61,476 nt of DNA from Candidatus Omnitrophota bacterium (GCA_016931055.1 JAFGFL010000058.1:1-61476); one strand, 5' to 3'; numbered from the stretch's first letter, positions 3,200 to 30,640 are shown. Notes: generated by a model from the letters alone, not told the origin. Numbers and translations: made by a program.

Positions 3200-3274
3200 T
3201 TGATGGCGGCGTGAGTTAATAGTATAATCTTTTAGAAATACAGGGGATTGAATAGGAATAAGGAGTTTATCAAA

Positions 3275-7332: not shown

Positions 7333-7530
7333 ATGAACATGAAAGAAAAAGAGAGAGTTGTTTCTCAAGCAGGTCAAAGCCTTATTGAATACATCCTATT
7401 GGTCGCGATTGTCACGGCCATACTCATCGCTTTCTTCCGCCCGGGAGGGTATTTTCAGCAGGTTTTTTTGAACGTGGCAGATCAAGAGACATCCTATGTT
7501 TTAAATACGGCTGAAATGATCTTTCATTAA
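7333..7530 (+). CDS. Orphan Flp-like pilin
   Basis: 65 aa. Leader followed by 'AGQSLIEYILLVAIVTAILIAF', which fits the G/xxxxEY Flp prepilin motif plus a hydrophobic helix. It lies 10 kb away from the main pilin cluster. Confidence 0.55.
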   Translation: MNMKEKERVVSQAGQSLIEYILLVAIVTAILIAFFRPGGYFQQVFLNVADQETSYVLNTAEMIFH

Positions 7531-15095: not shown

Positions 15096-16991
15096 ATGGG
15101 CGTTATTCATAAACTCAAAAAAGATGTAGCTTCATTTATAATCACATTAAAGCAAAATAATCCCTCCATTGGGGTCCGCCAGCTTGCTTCATTAACGAGT
15201 GAACAATTCCACATACAAGTTTCCAAATCATCCGTAAACAATCTGCTAAAAAACAGCGGGATGAGCAGTTTGATAGGAAGAAGGCCGGGAAGCGTCGTAC
15301 GAGCAGAAAAATTCTCTATTCCGGAAGGAAAAAAAAGGCAGATTTCCAAGAGCCTGGAAGAAACAGGATTTATTAAGGAAGACGTCTCTTTGGCTGTTAA
15401 AAGGGAAGATGATCTGGATAAAAGGGAGCACAGAGAACAGCCGATAGCAGAGGAAAGCGCGGGAGGTCTATCGATCCCTGATTTGCCCATAAAGGAAAAA
15501 GTCCTTCCATTGGAAGGTGAGCCTATTAAGGAAAGACAAATTGTTAAAGAGAAGCCGTCGAAAAAAGAAATATTTGATGCCGAAAGATTTAAGGCTTTTG
15601 TTGAATCAGAACGCCGGAAGAAAAAGACGAATGGAATGCCGATTCCGGGAGGCTGCGGATTTATTTTCCTGAAAGCGGCGCAATGGGACATCTCAAGGCA
15701 TTCTTTGCCGGGGGAACTGATCAAAAAATATATCCGCGCTCCTGTTTCCCGGCATTTTGATGCTGTCAGCGACATGTTCCTGTTTTTTAAATTCCTGAGG
15801 GCCGAATCCATTGACCATTTTGCGGCGTACAGGGGCCATGGCCTGTGGGTATTTAACAATTTTTGCGCCTCTGACGGCAGTGAAGAAAAGGACCTGCTGG
15901 AGCTGCAGGAGCTGTTTCAATGGGAGAAAGCAATGAAAGCGGATCCGTCGGCGGAAAATCTTTTTATGGAATATGATAAGACCAAAGAACAAGCCTTCTT
16001 AGAGGTCAAAGGGTTTAAATTGCTGCTGGAAGATAAATCCGAACTGGCTATGGACGCCTCCATGGTCTCCTTCGAAAGCGGCGGCCGCATCCCGAGTTTT
16101 TCTTACAGCTCGTCTCCGGTCCAAAAGGCAATGGAGCGTTTATCGAATTGCCTGGTGAGCAATATCCAAAACGCTGTTTTCCAAAGGGCCCCGGGGGAGG
16201 ACAGGCTTGACAGGGCGTTTTATGATATGGCCGCTGTTTTCGAGAATGTTCCAGGAAAAAGGATCATTCGGGCAAGCGTTATCGATGAGCAGGATGAAGA
16301 AATCGCCGGGTTTTCAACCATTCCGTTTCAAAAAAGAAATTTTTTGATGGGAATCGGGCCGCAGCAAAAGGAATTCAGGGAATTGGCCGGGCAACAGAAG
16401 CAATCCGGGAAAGCCACTTTTTATCATGCTCAGACCGACAGGGTTTTCTATTACACAGAAGCTGAAACTGCCTTTTTGGGAAAACAGATCTATAGGGACA
16501 TAAAAGAAGCTAAGGCCGTCATGGTCTGGAAAGAGGGGGAAAATAATCCTTGTTGGGCCGTTTTGACCAATAACCGAAAGGGGGGCGGAAAGGATATCCT
16601 CAATACATATCTTTCACAGTGGCCATATTTGGGCGAAACCCTTAAAGAAGACCCTATTTTAATGCTGGATTCGGGCATAAAAGACCAAAATTTAGATAAA
16701 AAGAAAGAAAATTCAACGTTTGACATATTTGTCGATTTTGTTGAATCTCTGCACAGGTATTGTCAAAGATATTTCTTTCCAAAGGCTTACTGTAAAATTG
16801 ATATAACTCAATTAATTACAGGTATTTATAGTGTACCTGGCGCCTGTTGGGGATCGGCAGATTCTTTGAGGGTTTCATTGGATGTTGATAGGAATTCTGT
16901 CTATCGTAATGACCTTGAATATGCCGTCAAAAGGGTGAACGAACGGCATATTAGGGATTATTTGGACCGAAGGCTCTGGCTTGAAATCTGA
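15096..16991 (+). CDS. Hypothetical 631-aa protein with N-terminal HTH-like segment and Lys/Glu-rich linker
   Basis: Long ORF with an ATG start and its own promoter. The N-terminus 'SIGVRQLASLTSEQFHIQVSKSSVNNLLK' looks like a helix-turn-helix. aa ~70-180 are charged and low-complexity. The rest matches no family I recognise. Confidence 0.5.
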   Translation: MGVIHKLKKDVASFIITLKQNNPSIGVRQLASLTSEQFHIQVSKSSVNNLLKNSGMSSLIGRRPGSVVRAEKFSIPEGKKRQISKSLEETGFIKEDVSLAVKREDDLDKREHREQPIAEESAGGLSIPDLPIKEKVLPLEGEPIKERQIVKEKPSKKEIFDAERFKAFVESERRKKKTNGMPIPGGCGFIFLKAAQWDISRHSLPGELIKKYIRAPVSRHFDAVSDMFLFFKFLRAESIDHFAAYRGHGLWVFNNFCASDGSEEKDLLELQELFQWEKAMKADPSAENLFMEYDKTKEQAFLEVKGFKLLLEDKSELAMDASMVSFESGGRIPSFSYSSSPVQKAMERLSNCLVSNIQNAVFQRAPGEDRLDRAFYDMAAVFENVPGKRIIRASVIDEQDEEIAGFSTIPFQKRNFLMGIGPQQKEFRELAGQQKQSGKATFYHAQTDRVFYYTEAETAFLGKQIYRDIKEAKAVMVWKEGENNPCWAVLTNNRKGGGKDILNTYLSQWPYLGETLKEDPILMLDSGIKDQNLDKKKENSTFDIFVDFVESLHRYCQRYFFPKAYCKIDITQLITGIYSVPGACWGSADSLRVSLDVDRNSVYRNDLEYAVKRVNERHIRDYLDRRLWLEI

Positions 16992-17175
16992 GATCTTGCA
17001 GCCATCTTCCAGATTGGAGTTAGCTCCCTTATTAGAGATTTCTAAACGAATAGGATAGACCAAAGAAAATGCTTTCATATTCTAAAGGATTCTTTTTGTC
17101 TCCAGAACCTAGTCTGGGCGTAAGATTAGGGGAAATTCCTGAAACAAATTGTATAAAAACTATAGGATTGTGAAC

Positions 17176-17203
17176 TTGACAGGCAGATTCCATATGATAT
17201 ACT
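17176..17203 (+). promoter_or_regulatory. Near-consensus sigma70 promoter with no obvious ORF downstream
   Basis: TTGACA (17176-17181), a 16-nt spacer, then TATACT (17198-17203). Confidence 0.5.
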
Positions 17204-17422
17204 TTTGATGTAACTGCCTGCGTTTGAAAACGCTGGTTTTTAGTAAATTTTGAGATTTCCAAAGTTCGCGTTTTTTAATCAGAAGAGGCCATTCCTGAAA
17301 GAATTGGGAAATGGTCTCCTCCAAAGCCACGGGGAAAACAGTGAACGTTCTTGGATATAGATTTAGAGAAGCAAGACCATATTCTGCGCATACGTATTTC
17401 GCAGGAGCCAATGAGTAGTTTT

Positions 17423-17456
17423 AAGCCTCCATGTCTTTTTGGGAGGCTTTTTTGTT
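17423..17456 (+). terminator. Rho-independent terminator
   Basis: 8-bp stem AAGCCTCC/GGAGGCTT (17423-17430 / 17442-17449) followed by 'ttttgttgttg'. Confidence 0.7.
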
Positions 17457-17637
17457 GTTGTTCTTTTAAATGGCTAAATACGCCGAAAGGCGTTTTAATC
17501 CTTGGCTTGCTCGTTTAAGAGGCCGGGGATGCCGGCGGCCGAAAAGGCGCCGGCAATAAAGCCCTTTGGAATTCTGGCCTTACCAAGAAAGGTAAGGAAA
17601 GGGCAGGATTATTTGTGAGGCACGTAAGGTGGCCGCG

Positions 17638-17799
17638 ATGAGGCTAACAGGTAAATGGAATCATAAAGGTCAAAGTCTAATCGAATATGCCATGGTCGCG
17701 GCGATCGTTTCGGCAGCCATTATTGCCATGAGCACCTACGTGTACCGTTCGGTTCAGTCAACCCAGCAAATGATTCAAGAAGAATTCAGCAGTCATTAA
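17638..17799 (+). CDS. Flp-like pilin (53 aa; below the ORF-track size cutoff)
   Basis: Hand-translated: MRLTGKWNHKGQSLIEYAMVAAIVSAAIIAMSTYVYRSVQSTQQMIQEEFSSH*. It has the 'KGQSLIEY' prepilin motif plus a hydrophobic helix, with 'aaggtgg' upstream. Confidence 0.6.
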   Translation: MRLTGKWNHKGQSLIEYAMVAAIVSAAIIAMSTYVYRSVQSTQQMIQEEFSSH

Positions 17800-17933
17800 G
17801 TACCTTCAGCACGATTTTGTCAGCGCGGAAGTTATTTGTCCCAGGAGCAATCTTGGCCATTTAACCAGAGAGCGTGTCTGGCAAAGAAGTTTTGAAGGTA
17901 CTTTGAGCATAAAAATCTTAAGGAGGGAATACA

Positions 17934-18146
17934 ATGCTTAAAAGGAATATCATGTTAAGGCCTCAGAAGAAGAAAGGTCAAAGCACGGTTGAGTACATCA
18001 TCCTTGTTGCGGCGATCATCGGAGCGCTGATTATCTTCTTGCCGGGGACGTTTAAAACCGCATATAACGCCGCTTTAATGAGCGGTACCGATGGTATGGA
18101 GAACATGGCAAACCGGCTTGCTGAGTCCAGACCGTTGTCTCCGTAA
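17934..18146 (+). CDS. Flp-like pilin
   Basis: 'KKKGQSTVEYIILVAAIIGALIIF'. AAGGAGGG RBS. Confidence 0.7.
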   Translation: MLKRNIMLRPQKKKGQSTVEYIILVAAIIGALIIFLPGTFKTAYNAALMSGTDGMENMANRLAESRPLSP

Positions 18147-18181
18147 TTAAGCCTAATGATTAAAATCAGGAGGAAATATCA

Positions 18182-18547
18182 ATGTTTAGAAAATTGATGA
18201 AAAATAAGAAAGCGCAAAATACCGCCGAATATGCGATTCTCATATCGCTTGTTGTGGCCGGTATTATTGCCATGCAGACCTATGCTCAAAGAGCATTGCA
18301 GGCAAGGGTTCGCGACGCTGGGCAATACCTGAAGAGTGAAACAGAAATCCTAGGGTCAACGGTCCAGTACGAGCCTTATTACCTGGAAACGAATTATGAA
18401 GTTTTTCGTAATGAAAGTGATACACAGAGATTAGACAGCAATACGACCCGGCAAGAAACGGATTCAACAAGGACCCGGACACAGGATGGTTATCAGGTAT
18501 CTACTTATAACACAACAATGTACAACGCCCTTGTTAACGGCATCTAA
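18182..18547 (+). CDS. Pilin/pseudopilin-like protein
   Basis: 'KNKKAQNTAEYAILISLVVAGIIAMQTYAQRALQARVRDA'. AGGAGGA RBS. Confidence 0.65.
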   Translation: MFRKLMKNKKAQNTAEYAILISLVVAGIIAMQTYAQRALQARVRDAGQYLKSETEILGSTVQYEPYYLETNYEVFRNESDTQRLDSNTTRQETDSTRTRTQDGYQVSTYNTTMYNALVNGI

Positions 18548-18603
18548 TTTTTGCAGGAATAATCTTCTTCTTGTAAGGAGGTTAAACTTAGGAGGATAAA
18601 TCA

Positions 18604-18933
18604 ATGTTCAAGTATTTAAATAGAAAAAGACAAAAAGGGCAAAGCACCTTGGAGTATGCAGTCCTGATTATCATCATCATAGGCGCGCTTCTGTCCATCC
18701 AGGTGTATATCAAGCGTGGTGTTCAAGGCCGGCTGAAAAGCGCTACCGATGATATCGGGACGCAATTCTCTCCGGGGAATACCAACGTGGTCAAGATTAT
18801 GACGACCTCAAGCCAGTCTCGAGAGACATTCTTCAGCGGTGAAACCAAATCCACATTATTGGGCAATGAAGTCACCAGAGACTTAATGAACTCTGATATT
18901 ATGAACATCGAGCAGGAATACTGGGGCGGATAA
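18604..18933 (+). CDS. Pilin/pseudopilin-like protein
   Basis: 'RQKGQSTLEYAVLIIIIIGALLSIQVYIKRGVQGRLKSATDDIG'. AGGAGGA RBS. Confidence 0.7.
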   Translation: MFKYLNRKRQKGQSTLEYAVLIIIIIGALLSIQVYIKRGVQGRLKSATDDIGTQFSPGNTNVVKIMTTSSQSRETFFSGETKSTLLGNEVTRDLMNSDIMNIEQEYWGG

Positions 18934-18954
18934 CCGCAGGCAGGTCGTTAATAT

Positions 18955-19008
18955 AAAAAACATGGCTTACTTGGGGAAGTATGTCCTTCAGGTAAGCCAT
19001 GTTTTTTT
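18955..19008 (+). terminator. Strong rho-independent terminator inside the pilin cluster
   Basis: 12-bp stem AACATGGCTTAC/GTAAGCCATGTT, flanked by an A-run on the 5' side and a T7 run on the 3' side. It begins 22 nt after the stop at 18933. Confidence 0.8.
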
Positions 19009-19142
19009 GGAAGGATTTGCGTCTTCTATTCGGCCATTTTTCATAAGTTTTGGGCTTTTCACATATAAATATGAAATCAAGGATGTTATTCATTGCCAAA
19101 AAGTGTATAATGAAAGAAAAATTTATATTAGGGTAAACACGC

Positions 19143-19532
19143 ATGCTCAGGGCTCTTAAAAACAGGAATGCGCAGGCTGTGATGGGGGAATATGTCGTCG
19201 TTATTTTTTTGGTGATGGCCGTTCTGATGGCCATGACGATGTATTTTAAAAGGGCCCTTCAGGCCAGGATCCACGATGCCCGGGACTACATGGTCACCGA
19301 AGTCAGGGCGCGCAGTGCGGGGTCGTTCAACGGGGATTTGTACAGGGAATACGAGCCGTATTACACCAACACGCTATCGAATGTCGCAAGGGCTATAGAG
19401 TTTGAAACAAGGCTCTTGCCGTCAGGCTCGTCGGGGATATTCCAGAAGATTTTTAATGAAATATTGAGCGTGTCGGTGAACAGCGAAACAGCGCCGCCGC
19501 GTGATTATAATTTGACAACACCGACTCGTTAG
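19143..19532 (+). CDS. Pilin/pseudopilin-like protein
   Basis: 'KNRNAQAVMGEYVVVIFLVMAVLMAMTMYFKRALQARIHDA'. Confidence 0.6.
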   Translation: MLRALKNRNAQAVMGEYVVVIFLVMAVLMAMTMYFKRALQARIHDARDYMVTEVRARSAGSFNGDLYREYEPYYTNTLSNVARAIEFETRLLPSGSSGIFQKIFNEILSVSVNSETAPPRDYNLTTPTR

Positions 19533-19599
19533 GCCGTTGATGGGCGGTTTCAGGGAAGAAGCGGTAAGATGGAAGGGGGCAGTGAGAAAAGAGGGGGCT

Positions 19600-19941
19600 A
19601 TGTTACGGCGGGCATTAAAAGGGAACGCGAAAGCGCAGGTCTTCCTGGAATACACGATCATTATCGGCGTCATTGTCACGGTCTTAATCGCCATGAACAC
19701 GATGATCAAAAGGGGCATCCAGGGGATGGTCAAATCCGTGAGCGACCAAATAGGCGCCCAGGCCAACGCTGAGCAAAAGTTCGATGAGGGCGGCCATCTG
19801 GAGGCGCAATATTCGACATCGCGTACTACGGCGGATCAAACAACGACGGAGCTTATGGGCATTACAAACTATATATACGATGACATCGCCGCATACGCCT
19901 CCAATACGGTTACGAATTTAGGGTTTATGGAAGGGGATTAA
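19600..19941 (+). CDS. Pilin/pseudopilin-like protein
   Basis: The track ORF starts at TTG 19537. ATG 19600 after 'gagggggc' gives 'MLRRALKGNAKAQVFLEYTIIIGVIVTVLIAMNTMIKRGIQGMVKSVSDQIG'. Confidence 0.65.
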   Translation: MLRRALKGNAKAQVFLEYTIIIGVIVTVLIAMNTMIKRGIQGMVKSVSDQIGAQANAEQKFDEGGHLEAQYSTSRTTADQTTTELMGITNYIYDDIAAYASNTVTNLGFMEGD

Positions 19942-19996
19942 AAGGCCGGTAATCCCGTCCTAAAACAGGACGCAAAAAAACAACAGGAGCGGCAAA

Positions 19997-20314
19997 ATGA
20001 TATTTCGCGGCAATAAAACTGGGCAGACAGCGGTCGAATATACGGTCCTGCTGATTCTTTGCATAGGGGCGTTTATCGGGATCCAGAATTACGCGAAGCG
20101 CGGGATCCAGGGGCGGTGGAAGTCCCACATCGATGAGATGGGCGACCAATACGACCCAAGGACCGCGGACACGAATCTCCGGCAGACCCTGACTTCCAGC
20201 ACGAACACGACGATCATCGTCATGAACACGCAGGGAGGGTACTGGACCCGGCGGACGGATGAATCGGCTTCAACAGAACAAAAGACGGGATATACTGCGG
20301 TCGGGTCGTATTAA
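19997..20314 (+). CDS. Pilin/pseudopilin-like protein
   Basis: 'NKTGQTAVEYTVLLILCIGAFIGIQNYAKRGIQGRWKSHIDEMGDQY'. AGGAG RBS. Confidence 0.7.
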   Translation: MIFRGNKTGQTAVEYTVLLILCIGAFIGIQNYAKRGIQGRWKSHIDEMGDQYDPRTADTNLRQTLTSSTNTTIIVMNTQGGYWTRRTDESASTEQKTGYTAVGSY

Positions 20315-20345
20315 CGGGAGAACCGCCCGATCATTGACAGGGGAC

Positions 20346-22133
20346 ATGGACATCCTTAAAAACAAAACAGCGCAAACGGCTGTTGAACTTGCCGTCTTCG
20401 GTTCGATATTGATTTTTGTCATGGGGTCTATCATCAAGACGGTCGTCAGCCAATCCCAGCAGCACGGCGCTCTTTTGAGGGCCACCCGGATGGCCCTGAC
20501 GTTATCCCATTTGACGACAGAAGAAGAGAAAATGGCCGGACGGAATTCGGCGTCGGTCTTGATCGTCGAGGACCGGCTGACGGCAGCCTCTTCGAAATAC
20601 GGCGCGATTGACCGGATCCCTTTTATGACCCAGGGTTCCGGGACGCACAGCCGGCATTTGTTTATGCCCGTTGATTTCGGAGATACCGACGATTTGCCTT
20701 TGTTCGATCTGTTCGTGAACGGAAAGCATTTTGTTTTCAGCACGGCGGGTTTTAAATATGTGAATTTAGCGGCGAACTGCGAAGACGTGCCACCTTGCCC
20801 TGCCGATTGTCCAATTTGTAATGTTGGAACTCCATGTTATTGTCGGGGACAGCCCGAAGCACCCATAGACGGGATCCCTGTTGAGGGGATCCCGGCCGGG
20901 GCTGATTATTGGGAGCCCGATTGCCTTGAGAGCACCACGGTCACAACACAGACCAATTCCTGCGCCGATACCAGCGCTGTCTTGCCCGATGTAGACCCTC
21001 CTTACGAATGCCCTGACCCCATCTGTTTAGACTGCTCGCCGGTATCGACACAAACCTATCAAGATATTACAACGCAGACCCAGATGATCGGGTGCGCCAA
21101 ACTGTACACGGTTGTTGAAAACCATCCGCTTATTCCGGATTGGTGTGATGGCGGTTCGAGGCCATGTCCGGCGACTTGTCCAACAGGGCCGGGGGTGCCG
21201 TGCAATTTATCAGTTGACGAGAGGTTTAATTTGGACCGGGCCAATGCGACAGACCCGGATGGGCTGGACGGCCTTCCGGGCTCGGTCACAGTCCCTGTGG
21301 GTGAACGGCCGGGATTTTCGTGGCAGTGGTTTCTTGTCGCGCCTGTGGACGAGACCATTGTGCCGCCGTTGAATTATGATGAGGCGAGTTTAATGCAAAG
21401 CCCTATCCTCAACATGTGGACCACCCACACGACAAGGGTCGCTGCGGGTGAAGGGATTGTTCTTCCCGGAGGGGAAGCGGAGGCGAAAAATATCAGCCTG
21501 GACGCCGATTATGACCTTAAGCTCGAATACATCATGGCGAACGTCGAAGAGAATAACGTGCAGCCGAACATTGTTGACGACAACGGAGTCATTATCCGCA
21601 TTGGCGTCATGGACCCGCAGTTAGGTGACATTGATATGACCTACGATGACAGCGACAAGTTAAAAGGGATTGAACCGTTCGGGTTCACGAGAGACTTAAA
21701 GGTTTACACGTTTGTCCGGGGCAATGTGCCTGATGGCGGGACATATTTCGAGATTGACGAAGGGCAATTGTTCGCGGCAGACACGCGGCAATTTATCCGG
21801 ACGGCCTCCAAGAAAGACCAGGTCGACCTTATCGAAAGGGTGTTCCGGTTAAGCCGTAATACTGGAGGGTATTGCCTTCCTGACGGCACCAAACGTTCTG
21901 GCGCAGAATTCCGCGAATTTTACGGGATTTTAAACAACAGCGAACCCAACCCCGTTGAGGCCTGCGAGAATGTGACCGGGGCTTGTTTCAACGGCGCGAA
22001 CATCAACCTGACATGCATGGATACGACTACCGATACCATTTTCATAAGAAGCCGGATCCAGGACCTTCACGGGCGCAAATGGGTTACGGAGACAGGGTCT
22101 GATCCGTATGTTAATTTTGACATTAATAATTAG
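20346..22133 (+). CDS. Large Cys-rich TadE/TadF-like pseudopilin (595 aa from ATG 20346)
   Basis: The track ORF starts at 20259 and overlaps the preceding gene. ATG 20346 gives 'MDILKNKTAQTAVELAVFGSILIFVMGSII'. A Cys-rich central part follows, with 'PCPADCPIC' and 'PCPATCPTG' motifs. Confidence 0.65.
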   Translation: MDILKNKTAQTAVELAVFGSILIFVMGSIIKTVVSQSQQHGALLRATRMALTLSHLTTEEEKMAGRNSASVLIVEDRLTAASSKYGAIDRIPFMTQGSGTHSRHLFMPVDFGDTDDLPLFDLFVNGKHFVFSTAGFKYVNLAANCEDVPPCPADCPICNVGTPCYCRGQPEAPIDGIPVEGIPAGADYWEPDCLESTTVTTQTNSCADTSAVLPDVDPPYECPDPICLDCSPVSTQTYQDITTQTQMIGCAKLYTVVENHPLIPDWCDGGSRPCPATCPTGPGVPCNLSVDERFNLDRANATDPDGLDGLPGSVTVPVGERPGFSWQWFLVAPVDETIVPPLNYDEASLMQSPILNMWTTHTTRVAAGEGIVLPGGEAEAKNISLDADYDLKLEYIMANVEENNVQPNIVDDNGVIIRIGVMDPQLGDIDMTYDDSDKLKGIEPFGFTRDLKVYTFVRGNVPDGGTYFEIDEGQLFAADTRQFIRTASKKDQVDLIERVFRLSRNTGGYCLPDGTKRSGAEFREFYGILNNSEPNPVEACENVTGACFNGANINLTCMDTTTDTIFIRSRIQDLHGRKWVTETGSDPYVNFDINN

Positions 22134-22145
22134 AGAAGGGTTAAC

Positions 22146-22345
22146 GGTGAATGGCTGATAGTGAATGGTGAATGGAAATTGGGGATACAAGCGGGAGTAA
22201 CGAAATGCTCAAAGGATTAAAAAGAAAAGAAAAGGAAAAAGCAGAAAACGGGACAAATGCATTTAACAATTTCCGATCAATGCCCCACGATTCGATAAAA
22301 ACAAACAACGATTTACCATTAACTATTCACCATTCACCATTCACC
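22146..22345. mobile_element. MITE-like element with ~30-bp imperfect terminal inverted repeats
   Basis: The left arm 'ggtgaatggctgatagtgaatggtgaatgg' (22146-22175) is the imperfect reverse complement of the right arm 'ccattaactattcaccattcaccattcacc' (22316-22345). Confidence 0.55.
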
Positions 22346-22591
22346 GACAAAGCCCAGGTCCTGCTTGAATTCACTTTTTGCATGGTCATTATACTGCTTA
22401 TGCTCTACGGAATCACGAAAGTCTTGACTTGGACCGGGCGCGAATATGTCGGCCGGAGCAGGGCTCATGACAACGTTCTTTATCAAAATATTGACAGGGA
22501 CTACCAGATCATCGGCGAAGGCCCCGCGAAGCAGATTGACCCGTATTATTATACGCCCGTTAAGTTGAACGCGATTTGGGGGGAGAAGTGA
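22280..22591 (+). CDS. TadE-like pseudopilin (start uncertain: 22172, 22205 or 22280)
   Basis: 'DKAQVLLEFTFCMVIILLMLYGITKVL' pilin-like motif. All candidate ATGs lie inside the MITE-like element at 22146-22345. Confidence 0.5.
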   Translation: MPHDSIKTNNDLPLTIHHSPFTDKAQVLLEFTFCMVIILLMLYGITKVLTWTGREYVGRSRAHDNVLYQNIDRDYQIIGEGPAKQIDPYYYTPVKLNAIWGEK

Positions 22592-22601
22592 GGAAAACAA
22601 T

Positions 22602-22875
22602 GTGAACGTAAGACGTAAGAAGTAAGACGTGAGACGTGAGACGTGGTTGAATTGAAAAACAGAATTAAAATTTTAAATAATAAACACCAAAAAACAATAG
22701 ATTCCAATGACTACATGTTCAATGACCGAGACCAGAGATGAAAGCAAAGAGGATTGTGACTAATACTTTTATAAAGGTTTGGTAATTTTGGATTTGGAAT
22801 TTTGAAATTTCCGATTGTTTAAAACGGTGTTTCAAACTGGACGTCTTACGTTTCACGTCTTACATCTTACGTGCG
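22602..22875. mobile_element. MITE-like element with ~40-bp terminal inverted repeats built from GTAAGACGT units
   Basis: Left arm 'gtgaacgtaagacgtaagaagtaagacgtgagacgtgagacgtgg'. Right arm 'ggacgtcttacgtttcacgtcttacatcttacgtgcg'. The core between them is AT-rich and non-coding. Confidence 0.55.
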
Positions 22876-22887
22876 TGTGGAGAACCG

Positions 22888-25800
22888 ATGATAAAACTTT
22901 TGAATAACCTGTTCAGGACAAAGCTGAAAAGAGCATTAGGCTCTTCCGCCGGCCAAGTGGCGATCGTCTTGATTTTGGTCATTGCCGTGGCGCTTATTTT
23001 CTACGCCGTTTCCCTTAATTTAGGGTGGTTTACCCAATCCAGGATTCTTGTGACGATGGCGTCCAATACCAGCGCGAGCTTGCTGGCGTCGGACATGGCC
23101 AGCTACGGACAAATGCTTTCGGAATCAAGCCTTCAAGGAGAGAAGAAAAAATGCGCGTGGACAGGGGTTATGGCCGCAATCGTAGCAGTTATAGTAATTA
23201 TTGCCATGGTTATTGCCTCGATTTATACCGGAGGCACAGCTTCGTGGATTTTTATTCATTTGCTTAAATCGGTAACTAATATTGTGTTAGGCCTTGTGTT
23301 TGCGGCAGCTTCGATTGTTTTACAAGCCACAGTTATTCAGCCGGGGATTTCGAATGCCTGGAACTCAATTGTAAGCGAATTATTGTCGCAAAGGAACCAG
23401 TTCACGGAAGGGGCGATTCAGAACGCTTTGGGCAAAGCTGTGACAGACCCTGTTTTGGTCCCGGATGTCAACGACCAGGACCAGGACAGGGTATGGGTCC
23501 TGCCAACTAAAGACGCTGTCGAAAATTCGCCTTATGCTGATGAGGTCAGCCGGTTTTCCATGTATTACGCGTGGAGGCTTCAGCAAATTAAGAAATCGGG
23601 GGCGGAGGACATCTCTCAATTCATCAACGCGTTAAGGGAGCTTCTTTATGAGGGGACTGACGGTTGGGGGCTTCATGACCCTATGCCGGGCGATAATTGC
23701 CGCGGCAGGGCGGAATGCCATCCGTGCTGCACGCCTTATTCGTACACTTCCCTTGATGGGGAAACGTATGAAGGATTGCGGTCGGAGAGATGTGAACATT
23801 ATACAGATGATGCGTATTGGGAACAGCAGTGCATCCCGGCGAGCCCGTATAAGTATCATCCAAGCTATCCTTTTCTTTTTGACTTGTATTTCGAGAATCC
23901 CTACAACGCATTTTTGTCCTTTCGCGAGCTGGTTGGGGTTGATGACGAACATCCAAAATATTGGAAAGACTTGTTCGATCCTAACTCAGAGCCGGTGCCG
24001 CCGCGGCCGCCGCAAAACTCGCACGCGTTGTCTAATCCTGTTTCAGACGAGGGTTTCCGCATGGAAGACGCGACGGGTTATTATGCCCCGCCGAACCCGG
24101 TTCAAACAGACCCCTTAAAAGGCATATTCCCGTTCTTCTGGAAAATGGCGGACTGGGGAGTGGACTTGTTGCCGGTTCAGAATGCGGTTGAGAACGGAAC
24201 GCCTCTTCCAAGGGACGGGCAGCCGCTCGATAAAACCGACAGGGAATGCCATTGGTGCGATATAAACGATCCAAGCGGAAACTGCCCTCTTTGTGAAGGG
24301 TTGGCTCCCCATCCGCATCCGCCGGAAATCCCGCAGCTCACTTTGCCCAATACGGATACCACATGGCTGATTTACAACACGTCCCATGTTGTCGACGGGG
24401 CTTTCAATGACAGGGACCTGCGCTATTTCGCCCCCGCTGTTATACAGCCGTTTCCTCCGACGGGGGTGGACAGGGTGACCCTTCCGGAGAATATTGTTGC
24501 CGCCGATAATATCTGCGCCGAGGACACTCTGTATCCCGTTGCCGCTTCCGAAGGCTTTTGGAAACGGGGAGCGGACCGCTTCTGCAAGGAAGAGGCGCCT
24601 TATTTTCTGGAATGCCCTAAATGCACGGATGTTGATTGCCACTGCAGCGACGGTGACCCGACAAAATTTTACAGCGATGTTATTGACAAGATTATTTATT
24701 CGCTGCCTGATTTCTTTGAATGGGCCAAGATCCTGCTGGCTAAGGCGGCTGATATGGAATCGCTTTACGAGGACTTTCCAAACTGGTATCCGGAGGCGGC
24801 GCTCTGGATAGAGCCTCTGGCTCCGGCAGCCCCCGCGCCTGACGCGAGCGTCCCTTGTTTCATATGCGGGAACCTCCAGATGCCGGACGGGACGCCGATT
24901 CCTGAGGGGATATTGTGGATATGGCTTAAAGAAATTACCGAAATGAGGGACAGGATTTTAGGGTGGGTCTTCAATCATAATTGGGTGACTGATATCGACG
25001 AAGGATGGGGCGGTGATGCGTGCACTGACGTATGGTGCCTTCCAGACGGCTCCCTTGCATGTCCGGAGGTCCCCGATTCAGAAGGGGAAGAGGAAGTTTT
25101 TGACAGCAATTATAACGGATTTCAAGGGGATATGGAAGATGTTGTCGGCTGCCTGAATTACAATACCAACGGATATGACCATGTGGCGGCAGAGAAGTTT
25201 AAATACTGCCGTGACAACTGCGATGCTGCTAATTGTGAGGTGGGCGTGACCCTCCCTGAATTTCATTTAGACGGGCTTACGCCTTACGAATTCCCTGACC
25301 CGGCAGTGACGCCGTTTGATTGCGTTGACTGGGGAGGAAGTCCGGGGGACAACCTATGGTATGACGCTGTCGTTAAAAACATACATTCTGCGGTTAATCC
25401 TCCTTCGATCAAGCAGGGTAACGATTACAGGTATGCAAAATGCGCGGCGAACTGCACTCTGGAATATTGTTTCAGATTGCCGCGGTCCATGGTGCCGTAT
25501 GCATCGGACCATCTCTACCGGCCTAATAAGTTAAATCCAGATGTGCCGCCGGGGAGCGTTTCGCTTGTTCCCCTTTGGGGCTTCCAAGCCCCTGTGATTT
25601 ACGGGGACGGGTTCAGGGATTGGCTGGATTTAACAGCCTTAAACGATTGCCTCACAAATTGTAATCCAAAGACTTGTAGAGTGGGAGTCAGGCTGCCTGT
25701 ACATATCCACAATACCGCGGAAGATTATTTTTACCCCGGGGTTGCTCCAGATATGCTGAATGATTGTCTTGACCCGGGCTGGGGAATGCCTGGAGGGAAC

Positions 25801-27234
25801 ATGTGGTCCGATGCTCTGGTTCATAACAAAAATCGTGTGAAATTTATTCGGGGCCGGATCGATGAGGAAACGGCGCTGCCTATTATGATTTCGTGTTTTA
25901 CAGATTGTAGCGGGGCTGCAGATGTCAATAAGAATGGTACGGAAGATTGCCAGGAGTCCCTAACCTTGCCTTACGATTGGAGTATTACAACGGGGGGCAT
26001 CCCTGATTGTGGATTAGATAAGCATCCTGTTAATACTATTCAAGACCCTCCATTGATTGATTTTTATGACCGGATTGTTGAAAATATTTTGATTGCCGGA
26101 GGGACAGGATGGGATGGGGTAGGGAGTTGCGACATGAGTTATACGCCGGGCTACGTGCTGGCTCTTGACCCTCAGGTCGATCCGCCGGACGGGTGGCTTT
26201 ACTCAACGCTGCAAAGTTCCCTTGAGGCGCAAAATCAAGTGGCAAAGTTCGAATTGCGCCGGGATTTCCTGAAAAACCGGTTGATAGAGGCCAACAACAT
26301 CCTGGATGTTTTTGGCAGGGATTTAGACGGCAACGGCACGGCTGATACGGGGATCATTTATAAACTCGAAGAATTTCTGGAGCTTGGGGAAGACATCCCT
26401 TGCGCGGACCTGTTTCTCTGTCCGGCGGCATGTTCTGGTGATTGTGGCCCCGCCTCGACGGCAACATATGACGGCCCTACAGGGAAACTGATTAGGGCCA
26501 GGATTAACTATAAGTCGGGTGAAGATGGGCTGCCGTACCAGGCTGTTTACGGGTGGAGAGATGAGGACGAGATTCTCCCCGGAGGGATTACGAAACGCGG
26601 TAAATGGCATATTGTTAAGACTGAGGCGCGTGTTCCGGGCATGTGCGATGAGAGTTGTTCAGCTGACCAGGAGGGCCCCGATCCCAGATGGCCGAGGATC
26701 GAGACCTACACCAAGAATTGGGGGACAAGGCGGTGCTACGAGTTGTTCAATACGGAGGGGAGCGTGAAATTCCGGACGACCCGCTGGGACGAAGACAAGT
26801 CGTCAAAGTCTTGCGCGGGGCTTTCCCCTTGTCCGGCGGCATGTTCCGATTGCGGGCCGGGCTCGATGTCCACATACAAACCGCTTTTAACATTCCCGAA
26901 CGGCACGCCGATATGGTCTTTTAAAAGCGGCCATCCGTTAAGGCCCATTGATCCGGTCCACAATCCCGATGATCTCGACGCGTTATGCGCGCAAAGCATG
27001 ATCTTGGAAATACCCGGGACGAATACGGGCACAACGGCTTACGGCGGCGCGTTCATAATGAATAAGTATGTTCCGTGGGACGATCCGGAAGACGAGCCCA
27101 ATGGCTCATGCTGGAACCTGGCGCATGAGCTTCTGGCGGCAGGGGTGGTCAACGAGACATGCGCGCGATATTATTGGCACGAAGGGCTTAATCAGGGTAT
27201 GGGCATTGAATTCGTCCCGTGCAAGGAATTTTAA
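22888..27234 (+). CDS. Giant Cys-rich TadG-like pseudopilin / pilus-associated protein (1,448 aa)
   Basis: The N-terminus 'LGSSAGQVAIVLILVIAVALIFYAVSLNLG...LLASDMASYG' resembles the TadG N-terminal region. More hydrophobic helices follow at aa ~90-165, then ~1,250 aa with dozens of Cys and internal repeats. Confidence 0.65.
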   Translation: MIKLLNNLFRTKLKRALGSSAGQVAIVLILVIAVALIFYAVSLNLGWFTQSRILVTMASNTSASLLASDMASYGQMLSESSLQGEKKKCAWTGVMAAIVAVIVIIAMVIASIYTGGTASWIFIHLLKSVTNIVLGLVFAAASIVLQATVIQPGISNAWNSIVSELLSQRNQFTEGAIQNALGKAVTDPVLVPDVNDQDQDRVWVLPTKDAVENSPYADEVSRFSMYYAWRLQQIKKSGAEDISQFINALRELLYEGTDGWGLHDPMPGDNCRGRAECHPCCTPYSYTSLDGETYEGLRSERCEHYTDDAYWEQQCIPASPYKYHPSYPFLFDLYFENPYNAFLSFRELVGVDDEHPKYWKDLFDPNSEPVPPRPPQNSHALSNPVSDEGFRMEDATGYYAPPNPVQTDPLKGIFPFFWKMADWGVDLLPVQNAVENGTPLPRDGQPLDKTDRECHWCDINDPSGNCPLCEGLAPHPHPPEIPQLTLPNTDTTWLIYNTSHVVDGAFNDRDLRYFAPAVIQPFPPTGVDRVTLPENIVAADNICAEDTLYPVAASEGFWKRGADRFCKEEAPYFLECPKCTDVDCHCSDGDPTKFYSDVIDKIIYSLPDFFEWAKILLAKAADMESLYEDFPNWYPEAALWIEPLAPAAPAPDASVPCFICGNLQMPDGTPIPEGILWIWLKEITEMRDRILGWVFNHNWVTDIDEGWGGDACTDVWCLPDGSLACPEVPDSEGEEEVFDSNYNGFQGDMEDVVGCLNYNTNGYDHVAAEKFKYCRDNCDAANCEVGVTLPEFHLDGLTPYEFPDPAVTPFDCVDWGGSPGDNLWYDAVVKNIHSAVNPPSIKQGNDYRYAKCAANCTLEYCFRLPRSMVPYASDHLYRPNKLNPDVPPGSVSLVPLWGFQAPVIYGDGFRDWLDLTALNDCLTNCNPKTCRVGVRLPVHIHNTAEDYFYPGVAPDMLNDCLDPGWGMPGGNMWSDALVHNKNRVKFIRGRIDEETALPIMISCFTDCSGAADVNKNGTEDCQESLTLPYDWSITTGGIPDCGLDKHPVNTIQDPPLIDFYDRIVENILIAGGTGWDGVGSCDMSYTPGYVLALDPQVDPPDGWLYSTLQSSLEAQNQVAKFELRRDFLKNRLIEANNILDVFGRDLDGNGTADTGIIYKLEEFLELGEDIPCADLFLCPAACSGDCGPASTATYDGPTGKLIRARINYKSGEDGLPYQAVYGWRDEDEILPGGITKRGKWHIVKTEARVPGMCDESCSADQEGPDPRWPRIETYTKNWGTRRCYELFNTEGSVKFRTTRWDEDKSSKSCAGLSPCPAACSDCGPGSMSTYKPLLTFPNGTPIWSFKSGHPLRPIDPVHNPDDLDALCAQSMILEIPGTNTGTTAYGGAFIMNKYVPWDDPEDEPNGSCWNLAHELLAAGVVNETCARYYWHEGLNQGMGIEFVPCKEF

Positions 27235-27245
27235 ATGTTACGTGA

Positions 27246-27273
27246 GTAGGGGCGTATTGCAATACGCCCCTAC
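27246..27273. repeat. GTAGGGGC...GCCCCTAC palindromic (REP-like) hairpin
   Basis: Perfect 28-nt palindrome 'gtaggggcgtattgcaatacgcccctac' between the 1,448-aa gene and the next pilin gene. Confidence 0.8.
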
Positions 27274-27294
27274 ATGATGGGAAGGAAAAAATTA

Positions 27295-27642
27295 ATGTTA
27301 CGGCGGAACCGAAAAAACTTTGGGCAATCGGTAATGGAATTTGCGGCGCTCATTATATTTATCCTGGCGGTCTTTATCGTCTTTCAAAAATACATCGTGA
27401 GGGGATTCACCGGAAGGTGGAAAAGCATCGGGGACGGGTTGGGCGAAGGCAGGATTTACGATCCAAAGAAGACCATCGAATGCGCGGCGAGCAAGTTTTT
27501 CGATGATTGGCCGAATCCGATATGGTACAACCGGACGTGTTTTGAGAAAGAATGCGAAGACGAGTGTCTGCGCTCGACCAGGGAAAGCGGCGCGTGCGCG
27601 GGTTGCTTAACAGGCACTTGTTCCAGCCCGTATTGTGATTAA
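27295..27642 (+). CDS. Pilin-like protein with Cys-rich C-terminus
   Basis: The track start is 27274. ATG 27295 after 'ggaagga' gives 'MLRRNRKNFGQSVMEFAALIIFILAVFIVFQKYIVRGFTGRWKSIGDGLG'. The C-terminal 55 aa contain 9 Cys. Confidence 0.65.
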   Translation: MLRRNRKNFGQSVMEFAALIIFILAVFIVFQKYIVRGFTGRWKSIGDGLGEGRIYDPKKTIECAASKFFDDWPNPIWYNRTCFEKECEDECLRSTRESGACAGCLTGTCSSPYCD

Positions 27643-27791: not shown

Positions 27792-28649
27792 ATGATGGTC
27801 TTGGCTTTATTCTTGTGTTTTGTCACCGTGGCCCTGATCGGGTATGTGGTCGCGCCGATGGTCTACAGCCGGGCGCTGATCGAAAGCGGGAGACAGCAGC
27901 AGCGGCTGTCCAACAAGATGGAGCAGCTGATGTCGCGCCGGGAAGCGAACAAAATCAGCCGCCTGTTTATCGTCGCGCCATTGGTCCTCGCCGGCGGTTT
28001 TTATCTGGTTTTCCCGGAAGGCCTGCGCCTGTTCGGGGTCATTTTCGGGGTCGTCGTCGGGTTGGTCTTCCCCGGCATCTACGTCCAGGCTCTTACCAAG
28101 AGGACCAAAGAGCAGTTCAACAACCAGTTGATCGATGCGCTGATGATCATGTCGAGTTCGTTTCGGGGGGGCTTAAGCCTGGTGCAGGCGCTTGAGGCGG
28201 TTGTTGACGAGATGCCCGATCCGATCAACAAGGAATTCGGCATTGTCCTTGGGGAGAACAAGATGGGGGTTTCCCTGGAAGAGGCGCTGAACCACCTTTA
28301 TACCCGCATGGCCTCGCCGGCCCTGCAGCAGATGATCACGGCGATCCTCCTGGCGCGGGAGACCGGCGGGAACCTGCCCGTTATTTTCAACCGTATCGTC
28401 AACAATATCCGCGAGAGCAAGAAGATACAGCAGAACCTGGACACCTTGACGATCCAGGGGAAGATCCAGGGGGTCGTCATGAGCATCCTGCCGGTCGCCT
28501 TCGCGTTTCTGCTTTATTCGTCGAACCGGAGGGTTTTTGATAATATGCTGGTCTCCGAGCTCGGCAGGACGCTTTTGATTTACGCGGTGATTTCCGAGAC
28601 GATCGGGGCGTTCTTGATTTGGAAGATCAGCTCGTTTAAGGACTTTTAA
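27792..28649 (+). CDS. tadB: TadB (type II secretion system F-family platform protein)
   Basis: 285 aa. N-terminal TM helix and T2SSF-like core ('LIDALMIMSSSFRGGLSLVQALE', 'ARETGGNL'), followed by C-terminal TM helices. Confidence 0.75.
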   Translation: MMVLALFLCFVTVALIGYVVAPMVYSRALIESGRQQQRLSNKMEQLMSRREANKISRLFIVAPLVLAGGFYLVFPEGLRLFGVIFGVVVGLVFPGIYVQALTKRTKEQFNNQLIDALMIMSSSFRGGLSLVQALEAVVDEMPDPINKEFGIVLGENKMGVSLEEALNHLYTRMASPALQQMITAILLARETGGNLPVIFNRIVNNIRESKKIQQNLDTLTIQGKIQGVVMSILPVAFAFLLYSSNRRVFDNMLVSELGRTLLIYAVISETIGAFLIWKISSFKDF

Positions 28650-28893: not shown

Positions 28894-29772
28894 ATGATTA
28901 CCTTACTTTTCCTCTGCGCTTATTTCTGCGCTTTCAGTTTTGTCCTCGGGTTTATGCCCATGGAATGGGAAAGGCGCCCGACGCTGGAGGCCCTGGGGAT
29001 GTCCCCCCTCGCGAAGAAAAAGAAAAGGAAGATATTTTCTCTCCTCTTTGCGGCGTCCGTGATCAATAGGCCCCTCTGCAAAGGGCCCGTCCGTGCGCGG
29101 CTCATCAAGGATCTGTCGGTCGCGCGCGTCAATTTAACGCCGGAAGAGTTCTTCCTGGTCAAGGAAATAGGGGTCTTGGTCATCCTCGTGTTGACTTACC
29201 CGTCCGTGAGCCCCGAATATATATTCGGCTGGATCGCGATGGGGTTTGTCGGAGGCTACATGGTCCCCGAGTTCTGGCTGAAGGCGAGGATCAAGAAGAT
29301 CAAGAATACCATCGTCAAGGAGCTTCCGGACGCGATAGACCTCCTGGGGCTTTGCGTGAACGCGGGGCTTGACTTCATGCTTTCCCTAAAATGGGTGGTT
29401 GAGAAATCCGCGCCCTCCGTGATGATTGATGAGCTCAATACGATCCTGCAGGAGATCAATGTCGGGAAGACCCGCCGCGATGCCATCAAGGACCTGGCGG
29501 GCCGTTATGAGCTGCCGGACCTGTCCACCTTTTCGCGGACGCTGATCCAGGCGGACAAAATGGGGACTTCCGTGACCGAGGCCTTGAACATCCTTTCGGA
29601 GGATATGCGGATCTCGCGCTACCGCCGCGGCGAGCAGATGGCCCTGAAGGCCCCGATGAAAATGCTGGTCCCTCTTCTTGCGTTCATCTTTCCCGTTGTC
29701 GGCATCCTTGTCGCCGGCCCTATCCTGATCGATTTCATGGAGAACAATCCGTTCAAACAAGTCGCGAGGTAA
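28894..29772 (+). CDS. tadC: TadC (type II secretion system F-family platform protein)
   Basis: 292 aa. T2SSF-like core ('LPDAIDLLGLCVNAGLDFMLSL', 'LIQADKMGTSVTEAL') with flanking TM helices. Confidence 0.75.
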   Translation: MITLLFLCAYFCAFSFVLGFMPMEWERRPTLEALGMSPLAKKKKRKIFSLLFAASVINRPLCKGPVRARLIKDLSVARVNLTPEEFFLVKEIGVLVILVLTYPSVSPEYIFGWIAMGFVGGYMVPEFWLKARIKKIKNTIVKELPDAIDLLGLCVNAGLDFMLSLKWVVEKSAPSVMIDELNTILQEINVGKTRRDAIKDLAGRYELPDLSTFSRTLIQADKMGTSVTEALNILSEDMRISRYRRGEQMALKAPMKMLVPLLAFIFPVVGILVAGPILIDFMENNPFKQVAR

Positions 29773-29783: not shown

Positions 29784-29853
29784 CCCACTTCGGGAGTGCT
29801 TACTCAATCACACCCCGGGAGTGTGATTTTTTATCACACTCCCGGGGTGTGAT
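29784..29853. repeat. REP-like palindromes flanking the RAYT gene (3' side of the minus-strand gene)
   Basis: 'cccacttcgggagtg' (29784-29798). Also two mutually inverted copies, 'atcacaccccgggagtgtgat' (29807-29827) and 'atcacactcccggggtgtgat' (29833-29853). Confidence 0.7.
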
Positions 29854-29998
29854 TGGTTGCTATTCGATGACCAGGCCTTTGACCAGGGCCAATTCCTTTT
29901 GGTATGAAATATGGTCAATGACAAATGAACGATAATCTCCAGGCATAATATCGGAAAGGTCATCGGTCCGGCATAAGGCGTCAGGAGAAGCCGGTCTT

Positions 29999-30520
29999 TT
30001 ATTTGGTATACTCTGCGTATGAGGAAAATACCCAATCTTCCGGAGAAGAGACAAGATTTGCTGTCACAGGATTTAGGTGAATATATCTGGTCAAGTGCAG
30101 GAGCTGTTCATCCGTTTTCACTAAAACGTTCTTAAACCTTCCCTCCCAAAGTGGTCCCTTCCTTGTGTGTTTAATATTAAAATATCTGGCATAACTGTTC
30201 TGGACATTTGCCATAAACCGTGTGATCCCGTTGTCTGCTGCCTGCTTGACAATAAGATGAAAATGGGTCGGCATAAGACAGTAGGCGATCAGGTTGACTG
30301 GTTTTATTGATGGCTGCTGCCTTGCTTTGTTGGAAAGACAGAGGGTATTTGCGTGAATATGATCGGAAAACTTTCCGGGAGTTAAGGAGCTTTGATAATG
30401 GCGAAGGGTTTGTACCATATGGGAATATTCATGCGAGTTACTGAAAATAACATAGCCGGCAATGCTACGGTTGAACACATGATAAATTTGATCTGTATGT
30501 AAGCTATCTCTTCTTGGCAT
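29999..30520 (-). mobile_element. REP-associated tyrosine transposase (RAYT) / IS200-like Y1 transposase
   Basis: 173 aa. HUH motif 'MPTHFHLIV' and catalytic Tyr context 'LTRYIHLNPV'. Palindromic repeats on both sides. Confidence 0.8.
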
Positions 30521-30640
30521 CAGAAAAACCTATTTAAAGGCAGGGGATTCAACGGGGATTTTGGGATAGTGACTTAAAATAGCATTCATGTTTTAATAAG
30601 TCAAGAAATATGTTTAAATTAATGAGATTTCACCCATTCA

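Follow-up and report, generated by a model that had tools for sequence, protein, structure and literature searches.

A conserved set of pilin-like genes in a Tad-type locus of Candidatus Omnitrophota

What does a very small bacterium need eleven pilin-like genes for? The question is raised by a stretch of DNA of 61,476 nucleotides (the window) from a Candidatus Omnitrophota genome, in which eleven open reading frames (ORFs), here called p01–p11, lie on the + strand between tadA and tadB. Omnitrophota are widespread, uncultured, ultra-small bacteria that are thought to be predators or parasites. An earlier note on this DNA had described the genes as an expanded family that could serve a complex fibre or tip. 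The analysis presented here makes it fairly probable that the region holds the full prepilin-type substrate set of a conserved Omnitrophota machine of the Tad (type IVc) kind, just upstream of a giant surface-protein gene. All eleven ORFs are present, with the N-termini that the earlier note had quoted, and so is a separate short copy upstream. They are listed below with the predicted cleavage site marked by an arrow.

7333..7530, + strand: orphan prepilin, 65 aa, Flp-size, QAG↓QSLIEY; Pfam Class_IIIsignal E 4.7e-4, 20.4 bits (below cut-off)
17638..17799, + strand: p01, 53 aa, Flp-like prepilin, leader MRLTGKWNHKG↓QSLIEY, mature 42 aa
17934..18146, + strand: p02, 70 aa, Flp-size prepilin, KKKG↓QSTVEY
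18182..18547, + strand: p03, 121 aa, extended pilin, motif variant YAQRALQARVRDA, conserved QYEPYY in the head
18604..18933, + strand: p04, 109 aa, extended pilin, prototype of the motif family, QSTLEYAVLIIIIIGALLSIQVYIKRGVQGRLKSATDDIGTQFSPGNTN
19143..19532, + strand: p05, 129 aa, extended pilin, NA↓QAVMGEY, YFKRALQARIHDA
19600..19941, + strand: p06, 113 aa, extended pilin, KA↓QVFLEY, MIKRGIQGMVKSVSDQIGAQ
19997..20314, + strand: p07, 105 aa, extended pilin, TG↓QTAVEY, YAKRGIQGRWKSHIDEMGDQYDPR
20346..22133, + strand: p08, 595 aa, pilin-like, TA↓QTAVEL
22172..22591 (start 22172 or 22280), + strand: p09, small pseudopilin, KA↓QVLLEF, mature about 78 aa
22888..27234, + strand: p10, 1,448 aa, pilin-like, SSAG↓QVAIVL
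27295..27642 (start may be 27274), + strand: p11, 115 aa, extended pilin, FG↓QSVMEF, YIVRGFTGRWKSIGDGLGEGRIYDP, Cys-rich C-terminus

The ORFs carry a class III (prepilin) signal, [K/R]-[G/A]↓Q-x3-E-[Y/F/L], which is followed by a hydrophobic helix. A strict six-frame scan asked for [GA]Q-x3-E-[YFL] and, directly after it, a 16-residue tail in which no more than one residue was polar or charged. Eight sites were found, every one of them a + strand ORF of the listed set, against a mean of 0.005 and a maximum of 1 in block-wise shuffles of the window. A relaxed scan of the window gave no additional pilin-like ORFs. Orthologues were collected by tblastn and blastp of each window protein against 20 loci from Omnitrophota metagenome-assembled genomes (MAGs), which had been obtained from a scan of species-representative genomes. 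The ORFs that miss the strict pattern do so in ways that are common to their orthologues: the signal of p05 is longer by one residue (AQAVMGEY), p10 has Ile/Val in place of Glu at +5 (QVAIVL), and p07 and p11 have Q, N or K within the 16-residue tail, late in the helix. The predicted cleavage site, [K/R]-[G/A]↓Q, is kept in all p01–p11 groups, and Glu at +5 (+6 in p05) is kept in every group but p10. The shared [G/A]Q-x3-E site proposed in the earlier note is therefore real, as the shuffles indicate, but it does not extend unchanged to p10, which lacks Glu5, or to p05 with its insertion. The orphan at 7333 is nearest to the p02 group, and its tblastn matches land on the p02 positions of related loci.

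Do these genes form one family? Profile–profile comparison (hhalign) of the orthologue alignments, made on mature sequences, joins p01–p07 and p11 over their first 27–52 residues with a probability of 91–99.9%. The strongest pairs are p04–p07 (99.9%, E 5e-32), p07–p11 (99.2%) and p03–p05 (99.1%); p06–p07 (98.3%) and p03–p04 (97.6%) are also joined. Apart from the signal motif, the proteins p08, p09 and p10 match neither this eight-member set nor each other, with probabilities that are all below 35%. Past residue 52, the heads of p03–p07 and p11 are unrelated, with the exception of p03 and p05, which share the QYEPYY segment. Since hhalign links only p01–p07 and p11, the profiles describe eight homologous pilins with a common α1 module of about 50 aa and heads of their own, plus three unrelated pilin-like proteins. 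The "expanded family of 11" is thus reduced to eight members.

The α1 modules of p03–p07 and p11 share the motif Y23-x-K25-R26-G-x-Q29-G-R31...D37..G40-x-Q42. It is kept in the orthologues of the ORFs at 18604, 19600, 19997 and 27295, and a QRALQAR variant is kept for those at 18182 and 19143. The short p01 has the core Y23-x-x-R26-x-x-Q29, and p02 is without the Y-x-x-R-x-x-Q motif. The orthologue alignment of p04 contains 32 invariant columns. In an AlphaFold2 model of p04 (64 aligned sequences), a single helix spans residues 15–52, with a predicted local distance difference test (pLDDT) score of up to 95, and is followed by four strands modelled with low confidence. Because the modelled helix runs this far, the motif is placed within α1, as the amphipathic second half of the helix (α1-C) and no separate element. 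The earlier note was right that the motif is conserved, but the model moves it from behind the helix to its interior.

A 61-position profile of the six window paralogues was compared with 1.84 billion representative proteins. It matched 5,259 clusters (50% identity) at E ≤ 1e-3 and 1,604 at E ≤ 1e-10. The consensus of the top 150 matches, in mature numbering, is Q1-s-T-l-E5-Y6 ... M20-Q21-x-Y23-x-K25-R26-G27-x-Q29-G30-R31-[LW]-[KR] in its N-terminal part and D37-D-[IML]-G40-[DE]-Q42-[YF]-[SD]-P45 further on, with R26 in 149/150 and Y23 in 140/150 of these matches. A divergent family member from this search, P0294, belongs to a locus of the same type on an 85-kb metagenome contig (L021), in which the pilin-like genes, small and large, are again complete and TadC is directly followed by a giant ORF.

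How do the small pilins relate to named families? The Flp-like p01 scores below the Pfam Flp_Fap (PF04964) cut-off (E 2.5e-6, 27.6 against 32.2 bits), its motif and size fit, and 18 of 20 p01 orthologues match Flp_Fap at E ≤ 0.01. The p02 protein lies above the cut-off of Pfam Class_IIIsignal (PF04021; 25.9 against 23.7 bits). No Pfam or NCBIfam family was assigned to p03–p07 and p11, and an NCBIfam scan of ten paralogues gave no meaningful family. Flp_Fap has no match in p03–p05, p07 or p11, nor in any of 21 p04 orthologues, 13 of which match Class_IIIsignal weakly; several p04 homologues have been named "UPF0333 family" by JGI. As the earlier note had supposed, the motif is foreign to classical Flp pilins: 0/21 p04 orthologues match Flp_Fap and no NCBIfam model covers it. 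As far as sequence profiles can define it, this is a large pilin family that has no Pfam or NCBIfam model and has a diagnostic α1 motif. Sequence searches of the PDB with p10, p08, the motif profile and the p01 profile gave nothing below E 0.15, the best matches being the hydrophobic helix of Geobacter pilins.

Which machine would handle such subunits? The gene order of the window, assigned with Pfam, is peptidyl-prolyl isomerase, RcpC, secretin, TadZ-TadA, DUF192 protein, helix-turn-helix (HTH) protein, p01–p11, TadB, TadC and the giant gene.

8698-9657: peptidyl-prolyl isomerase, Rotamase_2 (Pfam)
9722-10594, + strand: RcpC/CpaB (Pfam RcpC E 6e-26)
10598-12250, + strand: secretin with a CpaC-type N domain (T2SS-T3SS_pil_N) and a TonB_C tail (Pfam Secretin E 1.6e-42)
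12357-14537, + strand: TadZ-TadA fusion, one polypeptide (Pfam T2SSE E 2.7e-58, AAA_31/ParA/CbiA)
14561-14911, + strand: DUF192 protein, 116 aa (Pfam)
15096-16991, + strand: 631-aa protein, N-terminal HTH, no other domain (Pfam)
27792-28649, + strand: TadB, one T2SSF domain (Pfam T2SSF E 2e-16)
28894-29772, + strand: TadC, one T2SSF domain (Pfam T2SSF E 6e-14)
32131-61476, + strand: giant ORF of at least 9,782 codons, running past the window end; open frame with Peptidase_C39 near its start

A TadA-type ATPase with TadZ is supplied by the polypeptide at 12357-14537, the two single-T2SSF platform proteins by TadB and TadC, and the RcpA/CpaC secretin with RcpC/CpaB by the two genes before the ATPase. 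The split TadB/TadC, TadZ, RcpC and the CpaC-type secretin are hallmarks of Tad (type IVc) systems, and since all of them are present, the domain matches assign the locus to the Tad type. RcpC, the secretin, TadZ-TadA, TadB and TadC are syntenic across related loci. Together with the class III signals, these flanking hallmarks agree with the earlier view that the genes are pilin-like and belong to a Tad-type locus. In the giant ORF, Peptidase_C39 lies at frame residues 209-334, and the first 5,000 residues are otherwise without a Pfam match. The secretin–TonB_C and TadZ–TadA fusions are unusual, and both are also present in L021. The DUF192 and 631-aa HTH proteins stand between tadA and the pilin genes in essentially all related loci, at 47–63% and 21–43% identity, respectively.

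The same genes could be imagined to serve a piston like that of a type II secretion system (T2SS), in which a short periplasmic pseudopilus drives the giant protein or hydrolases out via the secretin and no long adhesive fibre is made. The locus is indeed tightly linked to the giant gene, which in L021 begins 5 nt after TadC, and a series of many low-abundance pseudopilin-like subunits with a large Glu5-less one recalls GspH-K of the T2SS. Nevertheless, GspC, GspL, GspM, a two-domain GspF and prepilins of the G-F-T-L-I-E kind are missing, whereas the Tad-defining TadZ, split TadB/TadC, RcpC, CpaC-type N domain of the secretin and Flp-like p01 are present. The giant protein also has its own N-terminal C39 peptidase domain, which is typical of type I export. 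A piston is considered unlikely on this balance, and it is not mutually exclusive with a Tad fibre. Membership in the T2SS itself was rejected: all 11 proteins have Gln and not Phe at +1, the platform is split, and the window ORFs gave no Pfam or NCBIfam N-methylation match and no GspC, GspL or GspM domains.

What are the three pilin-like proteins that stand outside the eight-member family? The p08 protein has one N-terminal transmembrane helix and 20 Cys, and a variable, Cys-rich middle lies between conserved N- and C-terminal blocks. The p10 protein has 54 Cys; its residues 1-780 and 1100-1448 are conserved, and the middle is variable and bears repeats. Hydrophobic segments at 22-45, about 90-112 and about 125-150 are kept in its homologues. 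Glu5 is absent from p10 and from all 44 p10 homologues, of which the named ones all come from Omnitrophota or metagenomes. In the T2SS, a missing Glu5 is the mark of the tip-most minor pseudopilin, GspK. The AlphaFold2 model of a 1,039-aa p10 orthologue, P0145 (pLDDT 74, predicted template modelling score 0.67), shows an N-terminal helix of 61 residues (17-77), then a hydrophobic hairpin that is poorly defined, a body made of helices and a C-terminus rich in beta structure; Foldseek found no relative of it in the PDB (best E 0.94). Another homologue of 1,377 aa, P0157, carries the glycoside hydrolase family 20 (GH20) domains PF00728 and PF02838 (Pfam), and this suggests that enzymatic modules of the large pilin-like protein can be exchanged.

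A precedent for such a trio exists in the Kil system of Myxococcus xanthus, a Tad-like pilus with KilP as the major Flp pilin and KilK and KilO as Flp adapters (Herrou et al. 2025, PMC12075869; Seef et al. 2021, PMC8460266). There, KilL, KilM and KilN form disulfide-rich trimers, are homologues of TadE/F/G and serve as interchangeable tips, and the distal domain of the large pilin is of no known fold (PMC12075869; PMC8460266). The features of a Kil-type tip, namely three adjacent pilins of unequal size with signals, many Cys and a distal part without a known fold, are found in p08 (20 Cys), p09 (about 100 aa) and p10 (54 Cys). The likeness of p08–p10 to the Kil proteins is one of size, adjacency, signal and Cys content. 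The Myxococcus Kil Tad pilus can by analogy be taken as the best functional counterpart, and the suggestion of a complex fibre or tip assembly made in the earlier note is plausible, as it fits both the TadE/F/G-like p08–p10 trio and the published Kil tip model.

The large proteins may also be read in another way. In its first description, TadG was an inner-membrane-anchored assembly or sensor protein, and p10, perhaps with p08, could be such a protein with a first helix that resembles a pilin's, so that only the small proteins would enter the pilus. The three hydrophobic segments, the absent Glu5 and a match to PF13400 Tad in just 2 of 14 p10 N-termini would fit such an anchor. The absence of Glu5 is, however, equally the sign of GspK at the tip, the Kil work models the large TadG/KilN proteins at the tip, and a Cys-rich, variable outer region that bears an enzyme in part of the homologues (GH20 in P0157) suits exposure. 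An anchored p10 is therefore regarded as quite unlikely.

Is the set a peculiarity of this genome? The gene order is identical throughout the 20 loci, and for each of p01–p11 positional orthologues were found, in about 15–20 Omnitrophota genomes:

p01 orthologues: 53–84% identity, 18 loci
p02 orthologues: 30–78% identity, 18 loci (2–3 copies in L016-L018)
p03 orthologues: 48–74% identity, 18 loci
p04 orthologues: 52–81% identity, 20 loci
p05 orthologues: 32–57% identity, 18 loci
p06 orthologues: 33–52% identity, 17 loci
p07 orthologues: 38–61% identity, 17 loci
p08 orthologues: 27–49% identity, 17 loci
p09 orthologues: 29–48% identity
p10 orthologues: 23–37% identity
p11 orthologues: 28–53% identity, 11 loci

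The homologues of p04 number 1,392, and those named by organism all come from Candidatus Omnitrophota/Omnitrophica. The 53-aa ORF at 17638, which is missing from the gene track, is among the two best conserved genes of the cluster, so the earlier proposal that it is a real gene holds. Because positional orthologues occur throughout, the divergent locus included, the comparison describes the pilin gene set as old and fixed across Omnitrophota and not as an expansion in this genome. The local expansion implied by the earlier note is contradicted by the same orthologues, and the small ORFs, for which it had allowed a lack of conservation in related genomes, were found there. That they are chance ORFs or recent tandem copies, an idea favoured by nothing except their small size and lack of a database family, can practically be dismissed in view of orthologues at 23–84% protein identity in up to 20 genomes, 8 motif sites against 0.005 expected and the many p04 homologues: motif count and orthologues rule out chance ORFs, and positional orthologues in related loci rule out a recent local gene expansion.

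Two variations were seen among the related loci. In one Omnitrophota MAG (L016, 7566-10400), the p02-p03-p04 triplet is tandemly duplicated, giving three p02-like, two p03 and two p04 genes, and L017 and L018 have two p02-like genes each. The duplication of the triplet suggests that p02, p03 and p04 act as a unit. Furthermore, four MAGs deposited as uncultured Planctomycetia/Planctomycetales (L004, L010, L013 and L015) carry the Omnitrophota-type locus with the same synteny and a p04 identity of 62–71%, and for this reason their labels are probably wrong.

How might the amounts of the different pilins be set? Two signals around the first four genes are of interest.

17176..17203, + strand: sigma-70-like promoter match, TTGACA, 16 nt, TG-TATACT, 11/12, about 430 nt upstream of p01; a consensus match only
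18955..19008, + strand: intrinsic-terminator hairpin directly after p04, with a perfect A-tract/23-bp stem/U-tract, dG -41.2 kcal/mol, z -7.0

The hairpin came to light through the conservation of the p04–p05 spacer, which is seen on both strands in related loci. Nearly all of the 19 loci inspected have a strong hairpin behind their p04 orthologue. An alignment of 16 loci contains 18 pairs, 10 of them with compensatory changes; the aligned hairpins were picked as the best local ones, and pairing is favoured by this choice. When the local folds of the 7–32 kb interval are ranked by strength, only this hairpin among the top 14 is both intergenic among the pilins and of the A-tract/stem/U-tract form. 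Terminators were not in excess in a general terminator scan, which did not pick up the p04 hairpin. Shine-Dalgarno sequences of the AGGAGG type precede p02 (AAGGAGG), p03 and p04, and AAGGTGG precedes p01; they are weak or missing before p05, p08, p09 and p10. The terminator, the Shine-Dalgarno strengths and the upstream promoter match together suggest that p01–p04 are made in bulk and the remaining pilins by read-through. The 646-nt spacer upstream of p01 (16992-17637) contains a strongly structured segment at 17498-17557 (-35 kcal/mol) and is conserved in short patches only. An Rfam scan of the entire window gave no family, and thus no riboswitch was found in the 430-nt leader.

Taken together, a Tad fibre can be outlined as follows. 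A prepilin peptidase encoded outside the window would cut after Gly/Ala, before the invariant Gln1. By comparison with known family members, the TadZ-TadA ATPase and the TadB/TadC platform would pull the subunits from the inner membrane by their N-terminal helix, and the fibre would presumably grow through the RcpC/secretin channel. The abundant fibre subunits may be p01, the 42-aa mature Flp-like protein, and p02–p04; these four genes form a transcription unit that ends at the conserved terminator and have the strongest ribosome-binding sites. With the same α1 module and different heads, p05–p07 and p11 might be produced in lower amounts via read-through and act as minor or adapter pilins. 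By analogy, p08, p09 and p10 would be counterparts of TadF/TadE/TadG or KilL/KilM/KilN and would form a priming complex that caps the fibre. In this complex, p08 could be the TadF/KilL-like member by its size and position, and p10 a TadG/KilN-like tip or anchor subunit. Glu5-less and Cys-rich, p10 may sit outermost like GspK, with its large, variable and sometimes enzyme-bearing domain toward host or prey. The α1-C motif is most likely a common packing surface that would fit paralogues with different heads into one helical lattice.

Several points weigh against this outline. To our knowledge, no filament has ever been imaged for the Omnitrophota Tad system. No prepilin peptidase (A24, TadV/CpaA) was found among the scanned ORFs of the window or the genes called on L021, and prepilin processing is therefore assumed. 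The beta part of the p04 model is of low confidence (pLDDT about 50), and Foldseek found no PDB match for this model, which is weak outside the helix. In the divergent locus L021, no terminator is evident behind p04. The window copy of p08 has no Pfam match and p08 no PDB sequence match, and TadE is matched by 1 of 15 p08 orthologues (E 0.059). Only weakly TadE-like is p09, as Pfam TadE is matched by 9 of 15 orthologues with a best E of 7.4e-5, below the cut-off, and by the window copy with E 0.36. The two weak matches of p10 N-termini to PF13400 Tad (TadE/G-like) are sub-threshold (E 0.0017). Finally, the two extra hydrophobic segments of p10 would hinder its extraction into a fibre and would fit a membrane-anchored role equally well.

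A bolder form of the fibre can be imagined, in which p01–p04 are co-abundant and form a heteropolymer on one Y23/R26/Q29 lattice while displaying different heads, the Glu5-less p10, with swappable modules that bear enzymes, is the cap, and the machine deploys or docks the giant protein on hosts. This picture is improbable as a whole. If it were true, a heteropolymer fibre with docking of a giant protein would represent a Tad filament without a counterpart elsewhere.

How much of this was known? An Omnitrophota locus with "many small genes" bearing class III signals had already been noted (West-Roberts et al. 2023, bioRxiv 10.1101/2023.11.21.568195), and the same locus was named the Omnitrophota Tad complex and found to be expressed in V. 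archaeovorus (Seymour et al. 2023, PMC10066038). The V. archaeovorus locus, from the LiM enrichment, is given as CP019384.1:12382-29832. In a 2026 preprint, Tad and pilus genes again flank giant genes. The relevant passages of the first two studies indicate that the window is an instance of this locus type, and the giant ORF at 32131 matches the published picture of Omnitrophota giant genes. The novelty claimed in the earlier note was accordingly overstated, and the locus is known in outline, its pilin set being an elaborate variant of a known Tad machine. In the passages of all three reports that deal with the locus, the small genes are not resolved into orthologous groups, unlike here, and the West-Roberts and Seymour passages are without the α1 motif family, the Glu5-less 1,448-aa protein and the terminator after the fourth gene.

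The resemblance to Kil goes further than the tip. Both are Tad-type machines of bacteria thought to live by cell contact. Each combines a small Flp (here Flp-like) pilin with minor pilins that are Flp-like and with a trio of neighbouring pilins, TadE/F/G-like (in Omnitrophota putatively so) and widely different in size, the largest with a disulfide-rich distal domain that lacks a known fold. In Omnitrophota, however, a single cluster between tadA and tadB holds the pilin genes, and six extended-Flp paralogues (100-130 aa, with the α1 motif and a small head) are present that are absent from the accounts in the Kil papers. In addition, p10, at 1,448 aa, greatly exceeds its putative Kil counterpart in size and has an added hydrophobic hairpin, a single tip set stands against the four interchangeable ones of Kil, TadZ and TadA are fused, and the locus is linked to a giant gene.

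With the classical Tad/Flp systems (Aggregatibacter tad, Caulobacter Cpa), the locus shares TadA, TadZ, the split TadB/TadC, RcpC/CpaB, the RcpA/CpaC secretin and the G↓xxxxEY processing motif, and it has putative pseudopilins of the TadE/TadF/TadG type. It differs in the TadZ–TadA fusion, the TonB_C-tailed secretin, TadV/CpaA and TadD, which were not found in the window, and the number of pilin-like genes, 11 against about 4. The Gln at +1 is invariant, the leaders are short (9-15 aa), and Flp_Fap is matched below its cut-off. Archaeal class III pilins (PF04021, UPF0333; EppA-dependent Epd) likewise have Gln at +1 and Glu at +5 and are cleaved after Gly/Ala, behind a short basic leader. In contrast to these, the Omnitrophota pilins come with bacterial diderm machinery (secretin, RcpC) and have the Flp-type EY pair, and the α1-C motif of the extended pilins lies outside PF04021.

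The vague annotation of many small class III signal-peptide genes can now be replaced by a parts list of eleven conserved orthologous groups. It offers candidate major, minor and tip subunits, a regulatory terminator and a pilin family ready for a hidden Markov model. Defining the parts of a host-contact machine that is still little understood is the main value of the work. By analogy with Kil, the recent view that minor-pilin tips customise Tad pili may be extended to a distant phylum.

Two further elements of the window lie outside the pilin cluster. A PilT/T2SSE-type ATPase with an N-terminal PilZ domain, which binds cyclic di-GMP, is encoded at 3248-4645 (+), 5 kb upstream of the Tad genes, and could be a motor for regulated retraction or an accessory motor. 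Between TadC and the giant gene, an IS200-like Y1 transposase lies on the minus strand (29999-30520) and is flanked by long, near-perfect palindromes at about 29804-29856 (-47.6 kcal/mol) and about 30640-30697 (-45 kcal/mol). The segment at 29798-30697 looks like an element of the REP/RAYT type (repetitive extragenic palindrome and its associated tyrosine transposase) that was inserted between the two genes; in L021, the giant ORF follows TadC without an intervening element.

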